Below, piece after piece: positions 16,052-17,530 of a DNA stretch of 64,000 nt. Origin of the DNA: an uncultured Bacilli bacterium. GTDB taxonomy: Bacteria; Bacillota_I; Bacilli_A; RF39; UBA660. The first letter of the stretch is position 1. The number at the start of each line of letters is the position of its first letter. Made by a program: the position numbers and the translations under genes. Under the pieces are notes generated by a model, which worked only from the letters and a program-made list of their open reading frames with translations, searched no databases and was not told the origin of the DNA. The stretch lies in the NCBI GenBank assembly GCA_963931685.1, contig OZ007038.1, forward strand, positions 529,964 to 593,963, read 5' to 3'.

Positions 16052-17530
16052 ATGTATAAGGTAATTGCAATTAGTGGTTATTCTGGTAGTGGTAAAACTA
16101 CTATTAGTGAGGAGATATTAAAAAATTGTAATGATTTAATTTATTTTGATTTTGGTTTTTTATTTAGGCCTGTGACATACTATTTAATGAATGAACTGAA
16201 AATGACTGAAGATACTATTCGTACAATGGTGATGAGTGGAGAGTTAAAGAAAAAAATTAAATTAACTTACAGAGTTTTAGATAATAAAGTTGAAGTAGGA
16301 GTAAATAATAATTTTTATGATTATGATATTTTAAATAGTTTAAAAATGAATATGGATACAGTTATGGTTGGTTCAATAATTGGTGATGAATTAAATGATG
16401 AATTGAGAGTTATAATTGATGATTTAAAGAAAAGTAGTAATATTTTACTTAATGCGAGAAGACCAATTGTGGTATATCCGGATGCGGATTGTCATATTTT
16501 TTTAGAAACTGATTTTGATGAAAGAGTAAGAAGAAAAATGTTGATGAATGGTGAAGATTACGAAACAACTGTAAGTAAACTTATGAAACGTGATCAAAAA
16601 GAGAAATCTAGTGGTTTTTGGGAAAAATATGATTTTACTAAAACTATTGATACTACTGGTTTATCTAAAGAAGAGGTATTACAAAAAGTTTTGAAAATTA
16701 TAAATAACAATTTTGTTTATTTTAATAATTTAACTTTAATTTTAGGTTCTTATAGGTGTAATAAAAATTGTCCATATTGTATTGCAAAGAATAATCAAAA
16801 GTTTTCTGTTTGTGATAATTTGGAACGATTAGATGAAATTTTAAATGAGTTACAAGAAAATGATATACGATTTAAAAGGTTTGTAGTGAGTGGAAATGGT
16901 GAACCATCATTATATTCTTTAGAAGATTTAAGGTTGATAAAGGAAAGTTTACTCAAATATAGGGATTTATTTGAAATAGTTAGAGTACATTCTTCTGGTA
17001 ATATATTTAACGAAGAAGATAAATTTGATATTTTCGGTTTAGCTGATTTACCACTTGAGTTTGAAATCCTTAGAGTTGCTTTAGATTCAAATGTTGATAT
17101 GGACGTGCTTGAATATAACAATGATTATTTAGAAAGTCCATTATTTAAAAGAGGTAATATAAAATGTGATATTGCTTTGACAGATTATTTAGAAAATACT
17201 GATTTATTATTTCAATTAAATCATTTTTTGGAAAATAATCCATCAATTAAAAAGGTTAGATTAAAAAGATTATTAGTAGGGGATAATGATACTACAATAC
17301 AAGCTAAATGGGTTAAAGAACATTCACTTGATAATGATGAAATTCAGAGAGTGGTTAAAGAATTAGGATTAACTTTGAAAAATGGTATTTATCAATCTGA
17401 GGATAGAAAAATTCTTTATAAAATGAGTGGAGATTATGATTTTGATTATGTTGTTAATGCAGGTGAATTTCAAAATTATGAAAATAAAAAATGCCATATC
17501 AAAGTTTTGAGAAGAAAGTTAGGTGGTTAA
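16052..17530 (+). CDS. Fusion protein: N-terminal cytidylate kinase (Cmk)-like P-loop NMP kinase domain (aa 1 to ~222) plus C-terminal viperin-like radical SAM domain (aa ~225-492)
   Basis: The N-terminal half is collinear with B. subtilis Cmk: IAISGYSGSGKTT matches IAIDGPAAAGKST, FDFGFLFRPVTY matches IDTGAMYRAITY, DADCHIFLETDFDERVRRKM matches NAEVKIFLLASVEERAKRRY, and IDTTGLSKEEV matches IDTTSLSIQEV. The C-terminal half carries CNKNCPYC (CxxxCxxC), FVVSGNGEPSL, ILRVALDSNVDMDVL (viperin ILAISCDSFDEEVNVL) and KKVRLKRLLVGDND (viperin VRWKVFQCLLIEGEN). Confidence 0.7.
   Translation: MYKVIAISGYSGSGKTTISEEILKNCNDLIYFDFGFLFRPVTYYLMNELKMTEDTIRTMVMSGELKKKIKLTYRVLDNKVEVGVNNNFYDYDILNSLKMNMDTVMVGSIIGDELNDELRVIIDDLKKSSNILLNARRPIVVYPDADCHIFLETDFDERVRRKMLMNGEDYETTVSKLMKRDQKEKSSGFWEKYDFTKTIDTTGLSKEEVLQKVLKIINNNFVYFNNLTLILGSYRCNKNCPYCIAKNNQKFSVCDNLERLDEILNELQENDIRFKRFVVSGNGEPSLYSLEDLRLIKESLLKYRDLFEIVRVHSSGNIFNEEDKFDIFGLADLPLEFEILRVALDSNVDMDVLEYNNDYLESPLFKRGNIKCDIALTDYLENTDLLFQLNHFLENNPSIKKVRLKRLLVGDNDTTIQAKWVKEHSLDNDEIQRVVKELGLTLKNGIYQSEDRKILYKMSGDYDFDYVVNAGEFQNYENKKCHIKVLRRKLGG

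Follow-up and report, generated by a model that had tools for sequence, protein, structure and literature searches.

A Kinase and a Radical SAM Domain in One Gene

A 64,000-nt stretch of DNA from an uncultured Bacilli bacterium (GTDB lineage RF39; UBA660), comprising positions 529,964 to 593,963 of contig OZ007038.1 (assembly GCA_963931685.1) and referred to here as the window, carries a gene that joins a cytidylate kinase (Cmk)-like domain to a radical S-adenosylmethionine (SAM) domain. The gene opens a predicted operon that continues with a metallo-β-lactamase (MBL)-fold protein and a CYTH-like protein, and it lies downstream of a second module encoding another CYTH protein, a viperin-like radical SAM protein and a LysR-type regulator. 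The features of the fusion gene are as follows, with positions numbered within the window and residues within the protein.

16052-17530, + strand: fusion gene for a Cmk-fold kinase and an orphan radical SAM domain, 492 aa, first of the three-gene operon
16052-16714, + strand: nucleoside monophosphate (NMP) kinase domain with the cytidylate kinase fold, residues 1-221 (PF02224)
16076-16099, + strand: Walker A motif (P-loop) GYSGSGKT, residues 9-16; G9, G14 and K15 invariant in 45 homologues
16715-17530, + strand: radical SAM domain of a small uncharacterized family, residues 222-492 (PF04055)
16757-16780, + strand: CX3CX2C [4Fe-4S]-binding motif CNKNCPYC (C236-C240-C243), residues 236-243; invariant in all family alignments
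16892-16906, + strand: GNGEP, the GGE-type SAM-binding motif, residues 281-285; G281, N282, G283 and E284 invariant

The 492-codon reading frame is unbroken on the plus strand from the ATG at 16052 to the stop codon at 17528-17530, and the ATG is preceded, at a distance of 5-10 nt, by a GGAGGA ribosome-binding site. The preliminary description of this DNA, made from its letters alone, had proposed a single continuous kinase/radical SAM polypeptide, and this proposal is upheld by the intact frame and by profile hidden Markov models (HMMs) that exceed their Pfam cutoffs in both halves. Cytidylate_kin (PF02224) matches the N-terminus at residues 5-218 over profile positions 1-210 of 211 with 52.5 bits (cutoff 26), and Radical_SAM (PF04055) matches the C-terminal half at residues 233-320 with 32.6 bits (cutoff 29.5). 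The motifs that had been named (GYSGSGKT, FDFGFLFR, the lid IFLETDFDERVRRK, IDTTGLS, CNKNCPYC and GNGEP) all exist and are invariant or nearly so among the homologues. When 5.8 billion protein clusters were searched, 45 full-length fusion homologues (484-509 aa, 50-98% identical) came up, along with stand-alone radical SAM relatives of 270-334 aa. In all homologues, about 3-9 residues separate the final helix of the kinase from the initial strand of the radical SAM domain. The fusion is present in many independent assemblies, including the 1.52 Mb HiFi chromosome OZ007022.1, a metagenome-assembled genome (MAG) of an uncultured Bacilli bacterium, as well as MAGs named Candidatus Coprosoma and Candidatus Ventrenecus. 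No source annotation gives a name to any homologue. A reading frame of this length in DNA of 26% GC, conserved across 45 clusters, is far beyond what would be expected by chance.

The Kinase Domain

Over its whole length the kinase domain can be aligned with the Cmk chains 1Q3T (S. pneumoniae) and 2H92 (S. aureus) at ~25% identity, and the residues of phosphotransfer are invariant: G9, G14, K15, R39 of FDFGxxFR (FDFGFLFR at residues 32-39 of the fusion protein), R136, the lid residues R158, R161 and K162, R180-D181 and E184. With the Cmk equivalog model TIGR00017 the domain reaches 50.7 bits, far short of the cutoff of 135.55. The Cmk motifs DSGAIYR, PRVRE and DGRDMGTVVFPDA were mapped onto the 1Q3T/2H92 alignment to locate the positions that read the base, with Ser36, Ser101, Arg110 and Asp132 taken as the cytosine-reading positions, in the numbering and roles of the E. 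coli CMK structures. The first two correspond to Phe34 (invariant) and Gly107 and the last two to Asn115 (variable) and Arg137 (nearly invariant), the latter adjoined by a one-residue deletion in the alignment. Because the cytosine-reading positions are replaced while the phosphotransfer residues are kept, the domain is probably an active NMP kinase with a base specificity other than cytidylate. An earlier caution that its substrate may not be cytidylate is thus borne out by the changes from Ser36 to Phe34, from Arg110 to Asn115 and from Asp132 to Arg137.

When set beside bacterial Cmk as a whole (PF02224/TIGR00017; 1Q3T, 2H92 and 1KDO), the domain shares a colinear full-length alignment, the P-loop, the NMP-site Arg, the lid arginines and the RD..E motif, whereas it differs in its low identity, its sub-equivalog score, its swapped base-pocket residues and the second enzyme attached to it. 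CMPK2, the kinase of the CMPK2-viperin pair, is thymidylate-kinase-like; Thymidylate_kin gave no Pfam match to the fusion protein at E<=0.1, and the best match was to Cmk PF02224.

The Radical SAM Domain and Its Relation to Viperin

The AlphaFold model of residues 222-492, built from 48 sequences, is confident (predicted local distance difference test 93.2; predicted template modeling score, pTM, 0.90). In it, six beta-alpha units precede two helices, and the chain ends in a small C-terminal extension rich in beta structure. The domain carries both the CX3CX2C and the GGE-type motif, which are generic to radical SAM enzymes. An exhaustive HMM search of 1.84 billion entries returned 378 cluster representatives of the family at E<=1e-3 and 56 at E<=1e-30. 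Across 50 family members, weak NCBIfam matches were spread over NrdG2 (34), TrsS (28), viperin (24), TatD-linked radical SAM (21) and MoaA (15) models, the best MoaA E among these members being 8e-16, and a Foldseek search with the model placed SkfB and SuiB on top, with viperin absent from the top 50. By its sequence, the domain is best described as a small orphan family in the MoaA/viperin/NrdG-like part of the superfamily.

Models specific to viperin match the domain poorly or not at all. The NCBIfam model viperin_w_prok (NF038283) reaches 19.6-20.6 bits against a cutoff of 180 and covers only the cluster region at residues 235-298, the prokaryotic viperin (pVip) model of PADLOC reaches ~22 bits (22.3) over 54 residues only, and TIGR04278 viperin does not match the domain. 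The PADLOC model of a pVip-kinase fusion, PDLC02905, gave no match to the 492-aa protein at E<=0.1, and a family-profile search of PDB sequences found no viperin. A comparison was also made with the viperin-like family encoded upstream of the fusion. Local hhalign aligns 124 columns, corresponding to the generic radical SAM core, with 96% probability and then stops; a forced global profile alignment is colinear over ~217 columns (216-218) at 22% identity, with low confidence, and sets KKVRLKRLLVGDND opposite the segment that HMMER paired with viperin WKVFQVLIVEGEND. These results bear on the claim that the C-terminal blocks ILRVALDS and KVRLKRLLVGDND mirror viperin. The two blocks do line up transitively through the upstream viperin-like protein, in that forced and low-confidence alignment, while the direct sequence match to viperin ends at about residue 298. 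The perceived resemblance thus appears to have some basis, though not beyond what related radical SAM families share.

The Operon and the Neighboring Module

The genes and regulatory DNA around the fusion gene are the following.

17523-18242, + strand: MBL-fold phosphodiesterase, Apyc1/RNase Z-like; its start overlaps the fusion stop
18245-18820, + strand: CYTH2, a divergent CYTH/triphosphate-tunnel-like protein; third operon gene, 2 nt after the MBL gene
13681-14274, + strand: CYTH1, a CYTH/triphosphate tunnel metalloenzyme (TTM); first gene of the neighboring module
14240-14977, + strand: viperin-like radical SAM protein, 245 aa from ATG (the mechanical reading-frame start is TTG 14225); two genes upstream of the fusion
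14994-15887, + strand: LysR-type regulator between the two modules; Pfam LysR_substrate, 110 bits
15888-16051, + strand: intergenic control region, 164 nt upstream of the fusion, with ATTAC, repeated TTATA boxes, TGTGATACAT and the ribosome-binding site

The fusion, MBL and CYTH2 genes are predicted, from their contiguous or overlapping arrangement, to form a translationally coupled operon. The same arrangement is found in every Bacilli-type locus with enough contig, the MBL gene lying immediately 3ʹ of the fusion and the CYTH2 gene always coming next. The MBL protein matches Pfam Lactamase_B_2 with 43.1 bits and Anti-Pycsar_Apyc1 with 47.7 bits (cutoff 50), and its HFHSDH motif (residues 67-72; nt 17721-17738) is invariant in 16 orthologues. 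CYTH2 is recognized by the NCBIfam model cyaB (E 9.6e-11; 41.8 bits, below the cutoff of 57.95) and has no match in Pfam or among PDB sequences. CYTH1, which shows no BLAST similarity to CYTH2, exceeds the Pfam CYTH cutoff (24.9 bits against 23.2), matches the TTM Saci_0718 in the PDB (E 5.5e-6) and has invariant E8, E10 and WIRLRTNG.

The viperin-like gene overlaps the 3ʹ end of CYTH1. Its product scores 130.8 bits with PADLOC pVip and 126.7 bits with viperin_w_prok (below the cutoff of 180), matches PDB viperin chains at E 6e-18 to 5e-12 as opposed to 2e-6 for MoaA, and matches the viperin part of the fusion model PDLC02905 with 71.2 bits. It belongs to its own tight clade of ~245-aa proteins and is short at the C-terminus. 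Judged by these profile scores, this separate protein is much closer to viperin than is the radical SAM domain of the fusion itself. As for paralogy within the locus, the fusion and the viperin-like gene share the cluster-binding region only (33% over 54 aa, E 1e-3).

The LysR gene is broken here by an in-frame TAA at 15129-15131 (codon 46), between the helix-turn-helix region and the substrate-binding domain, while its orthologues in loci L001, L005 and L008 are intact at 297 aa; the nonsense codon may reflect a real inactivation in this strain or a sequencing error. The control region contains two TTATA boxes ~20 nt apart and was compared across nine loci (L001, L004, L005, L008, L013, L015, L017, L019 and L024), in which 41 columns are invariant even though the encoded proteins share only 52-79% identity. 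A similar element precedes the fusion in L004, where no LysR gene adjoins. The conserved boxes are possibly regulator-binding sites or a shared operator, perhaps that of LysR. A riboswitch or other known RNA was not found upstream of the operon, and the sole Rfam match in the window is a 6S RNA (RF00013, 49.9 bits, full length) at 19058-19233 (+), ~240 nt past the last operon gene. The promoter and terminator scan returned 55 sites as against 46.5 expected, which is uninformative in AT-rich DNA. Elsewhere in the window, GC content rises to 0.34-0.36 at 2001-6000 from ~0.25 in the remainder, coinciding with open reading frames at 2809-4881 (690 aa) and 4953-6143 (396 aa) that are, by size alone, candidates for fusA and tuf. 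No tRNA or rRNA genes were found in the whole window.

Gene Content in Related Genomes

The fusion operon usually has the second module beside it, and all six genes recur together, at differing chromosomal positions, in genomes with protein identities of only 47-68%. The two modules are also separable, with fusion-MBL-CYTH2 occurring alone in L004, L014 and L016 and the CYTH-viperin-like-LysR module alone in L090, L092 and L094. In L090 (5644-8651) the latter module directly follows a PNP_UDP_1 nucleoside phosphorylase gene, and in L094 (2402-8633) it lies near a pyrimidine-nucleoside phosphorylase gene. Other relatives distribute the same domains differently. In the clostridial loci L022 and L025, a CYTH-Cytidylate_kin fusion, both domains of which exceed their Pfam cutoffs in L022, is accompanied by separate radical SAM, CYTH2-like and PHP phosphoesterase genes. 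In L023 the genes for Cmk, radical SAM, NUDIX and CYTH are all separate, in L020 a Cmk-radical SAM fusion is followed by NUDIX, and L026 contains all seven parts in another order with Cmk unfused. Because the parts are fused or swapped in L022, L023, L020 and L026, Rosetta-stone and displacement reasoning suggests that the kinase, CYTH, radical SAM and phosphohydrolase proteins cooperate.

More distant members of the family form two further groups. A sister subfamily at 28-38% identity (loci L028-L087, e.g., L035 6927-8816 and L080 7409-10841) is found in gut Alphaproteobacteria, Gastranaerophilales, Bacilli, Clostridia and one genome of the candidate phyla radiation, where the radical SAM enzyme is fused with or lies beside a nucleoside 2-deoxyribosyltransferase (NDT)-like protein. 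The cluster also includes a PnuC-type transporter (129.6 bits), Ham1, assorted phosphoesterases, a 296-aa protein whose N-terminus is CYTH-like (EERKF) and whose C-terminus is a P-loop kinase, and often a divergent LysR gene, and it looks like an undescribed nucleoside-processing pathway. A third subfamily, represented by two IMG/VR viral contigs and some Bacilli (L095 5702-7459, L096 5986-7468 and L074 7983-9669), has a MazG-like pyrophosphatase as its neighbor or fusion partner, followed by a protein of 221-232 aa that contains a class II aminoacyl-tRNA synthetase core (PF00587); in L095 the radical SAM gene is apparently split. The two IMG/VR contigs carry members of a different subfamily from the fusion. 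With regard to mobile elements, tblastn of INPHARED and PLSDB gave generic Cmk matches only (~25% identity) and no homologue of the radical SAM domain. All of the recurrent partners act on nucleosides, nucleotides or their phosphates, and these partners in other genomes strongly suggest a nucleotide substrate for the radical SAM half.

A Possible Nucleotide-Tailoring Pathway and Its Alternatives

These observations can be brought together in a nucleotide-tailoring pathway that runs through a kinase, a radical step and phosphate trimming, a reading for which the chances are considered roughly even. The fusion protein would be a bifunctional enzyme of an undescribed family, in which an NMP kinase with an intact phosphotransfer apparatus and a rebuilt base pocket is joined to a radical SAM domain. 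The kinase domain would phosphorylate an NMP, probably not cytidine monophosphate (CMP) or else a modified NMP, toward the di- or triphosphate. The radical SAM domain would then transform that nucleotide by way of a 5ʹ-deoxyadenosyl radical, most plausibly on the sugar, and the CYTH and MBL enzymes would remove or cleave phosphates and thereby release or detoxify the modified nucleotide or nucleoside. Such a logic would resemble that of viperin with its kinase, while the fusion enzyme itself does not appear to be a member of the viperin family. Because the chromosomal context is a housekeeping one and the locus is under apparent LysR control, the evidence leans toward a regulated metabolic or conditional pathway.

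A more specific form of this pathway holds that the kinase, CYTH and orphan radical SAM proteins make up an unrecognized, recurrent nucleotide-transforming module that performs a sugar chemistry unlike that of viperin and yields a new modified nucleotide or nucleoside. Its parts would recombine with NUDIX, PHP, MBL, MazG-like and deoxyribosyltransferase-like partners and with PnuC-type transporters in gut-associated bacteria with small genomes, and in the present locus both radical SAM enzymes would act in one LysR-controlled pathway. This form is regarded as doubtful.

Several points weigh against the nucleotide-tailoring pathway. The Radical_SAM match lies only narrowly above its Pfam cutoff (32.6 vs 29.5) and covers the first half of the profile only. 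The MBL domain fits an RNase Z-like nuclease equally well, and CYTH2 may be non-catalytic because it has few conserved residues and no clear ExExK motif. The mechanistic steps are drawn from domain identity and gene association, and the kinase step may come before or after the radical step. Finally, the full-length AlphaFold model has confident domains but an overall pTM of 0.58 and predicts no confident interdomain interface. The preliminary description had supposed that the fusion channels CMP to cytidine di- or triphosphate for the radical SAM step, which is unsupported as stated; because the full-length pTM is only 0.58, channeling is neither supported nor excluded.

An alternative possibility is that the locus belongs to a housekeeping or salvage pathway of gut bacteria with small genomes, in which the radical SAM enzyme converts or repairs an imported or damaged nucleotide and has no part in defense. 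The PnuC-type transporter, the NDT-like protein, the CYTH-like and P-loop kinase protein and Ham1 of the sister subfamily would fit such a role, as would the recurrence of LysR regulators in both subfamilies, the taxonomic pattern of the family and the nucleoside phosphorylases that adjoin the CYTH-viperin-like-LysR module in L090 and L094. The neighbors in the window likewise consist of tRNA synthetase-sized reading frames, TtcA, the 6S RNA and RNase HIII-like and deoxycytidine monophosphate deaminase-like genes. The transporter and NDT context, however, is that of the distant subfamily and not of the fusion clade, and the family is rare, with the 56 representatives at E<=1e-30 having come from the whole of the 1.84 billion. 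The position of the locus varies between related genomes, which is unusual for core metabolism, and no known salvage reaction needs such an enzyme. Salvage is therefore kept as a tentative and somewhat unlikely explanation.

A second alternative is that the fusion is a true viperin-type nucleotide dehydratase, which would synthesize a 3ʹ-deoxy-3ʹ,4ʹ-didehydronucleoside triphosphate (ddhNTP), joined to the kinase that supplies its substrate and thus an anti-phage, fused bacterial equivalent of CMPK2-viperin. The colinearity of the forced alignment over 216-218 columns, with KKVRLKRLLVGDND opposite the WKVFQVLIVEGEND-paired segment, speaks for it, and so do the match of the N-terminal domain to the PADLOC viperin-associated kinase VakA (E 4.5e-6), the presence of a viperin-like gene at the same locus and the documented fusions of viperin with kinases and with triphosphatase/cyclase enzymes (bioRxiv 10.1101/2023.09.13.557418). 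Against these stand the failure of every viperin model described above, the NrdG2, TrsS, TatD-linked and MoaA models that match as often or more strongly, the absence of viperin from the Foldseek top 50 and the end of the local alignment at the generic core. In the kinase, other residues stand at the cytosine-reading positions, the surroundings consist of housekeeping genes and LysR as opposed to a defense island, and the phage and plasmid collections hold no homologue of the radical SAM domain. The preliminary description had presented the gene as the fused counterpart of CMPK2-viperin, and this identification is not supported as stated: the kinase is of the Cmk type (PF02224) and not of the CMPK2 lineage, PDLC02905 does not match the fusion, and the far closer relative of viperin is the separate upstream gene, which does match that model. 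A viperin-type dehydratase is accordingly judged unlikely.

It is also very improbable that the radical SAM half is an activating enzyme of the NrdG or pyruvate formate-lyase-activating type that places a radical on a protein partner. This possibility is rated low because no glycyl-radical enzyme is encoded in any examined locus; in addition, NrdG2 reaches 19.9-20.9 bits against a cutoff of 131, the activase-type matches cover the cluster-binding N-terminus only and all lie far under their cutoffs, the ~90-residue C-terminal extension is lacking in small activases, and all of the fusion partners are nucleotide enzymes. Finally, an assembly or frameshift artifact uniting two separate genes, which the unfused Cmk and radical SAM genes of L023 and L026 might bring to mind, is of negligible probability and was rejected because the fusion recurs with the same architecture of 484-509 aa in 45 clusters from many independent samples and assemblers, a complete HiFi chromosome among them, with a conserved and gap-poor junction.

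Relation to Known Systems

The linkage of viperin to kinases, including their fusion, is already known (PADLOC PDLC02905; bioRxiv 10.1101/2023.09.13.557418). The preprint of Shomar et al. describes 18 eukaryotic viperin-kinase fusions and 4 viperin-triphosphatase/cyclase fusions, reports that 12% of bacterial viperins adjoin a kinase gene, and finds most viperin-associated kinases to be related to CMPK2, with two small bacterial clades of other origin (bioRxiv 10.1101/2023.09.13.557418). Compared with the pVips that have associated or fused kinases (PADLOC pVip, VakA and PDLC02905; CMPK2-viperin), the radical SAM domain described here fails the viperin cutoffs and forms its own family, the kinase is of the Cmk type with replaced cytosine readers, and the operon adds MBL, CYTH and LysR genes in housekeeping surroundings.

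A further point of comparison is Ophion, which consists of the radical SAM protein OpnA, the PHP protein OpnB and the phosphoribosyltransferase OpnC and defends against jumbo phages (bioRxiv 10.1101/2025.09.30.679545). When compared by description only, OpnA is reported to be related to viperins yet phylogenetically distinct from them and is accompanied by a PHP protein and an enzyme of nucleotide metabolism, and the clostridial relatives of the fusion carry PHP as well. Ophion differs in being gammaproteobacterial and in having a phosphoribosyltransferase instead of a kinase and CYTH; moreover, the anti-phage activity of Ophion has been shown by experiment. The pairing of a radical enzyme with a phosphohydrolase also recalls the biosynthesis of oxetanocin A. 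There, OxsB, a cobalamin-dependent radical SAM enzyme, acts on a phosphorylated nucleoside, and OxsA, a dedicated phosphohydrolase of the HD-domain type, trims the phosphates, a logic that the fusion locus may share.

The literature yielded no paper that pairs triphosphate tunnel metalloenzymes with radical SAM enzymes, or CYTH with viperin, in the way seen here. Nor was a description found in it of the radical SAM family itself, of its joining to a kinase of the Cmk type, of its constant association with CYTH proteins and interchangeable phosphohydrolases, or of its placement next to another, viperin-like enzyme together with a LysR regulator.

Implications

Viperin-type nucleotide radical chemistry underlies antiviral chain terminators in animals and bacteria. 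The family described here represents a second, sequence-distinct radical SAM family that is tied to nucleotides by fusions, to a Cmk-like kinase in this locus and to deoxyribosyltransferase-like and MazG-like proteins elsewhere, and it is always accompanied by phosphate-trimming enzymes and often lies beside a relative of viperin. If a new nucleotide analogue is indeed made, the family would add a class of enzyme and a candidate antiviral or antimetabolite scaffold, and the recurrent and unexplained pairing of CYTH and viperin-like genes would gain a function. A role in salvage would instead mean that uncultured gut bacteria use radical chemistry in managing their nucleotides. Whichever holds, the kinase fusion suggests a definite candidate substrate class for this radical SAM enzyme.

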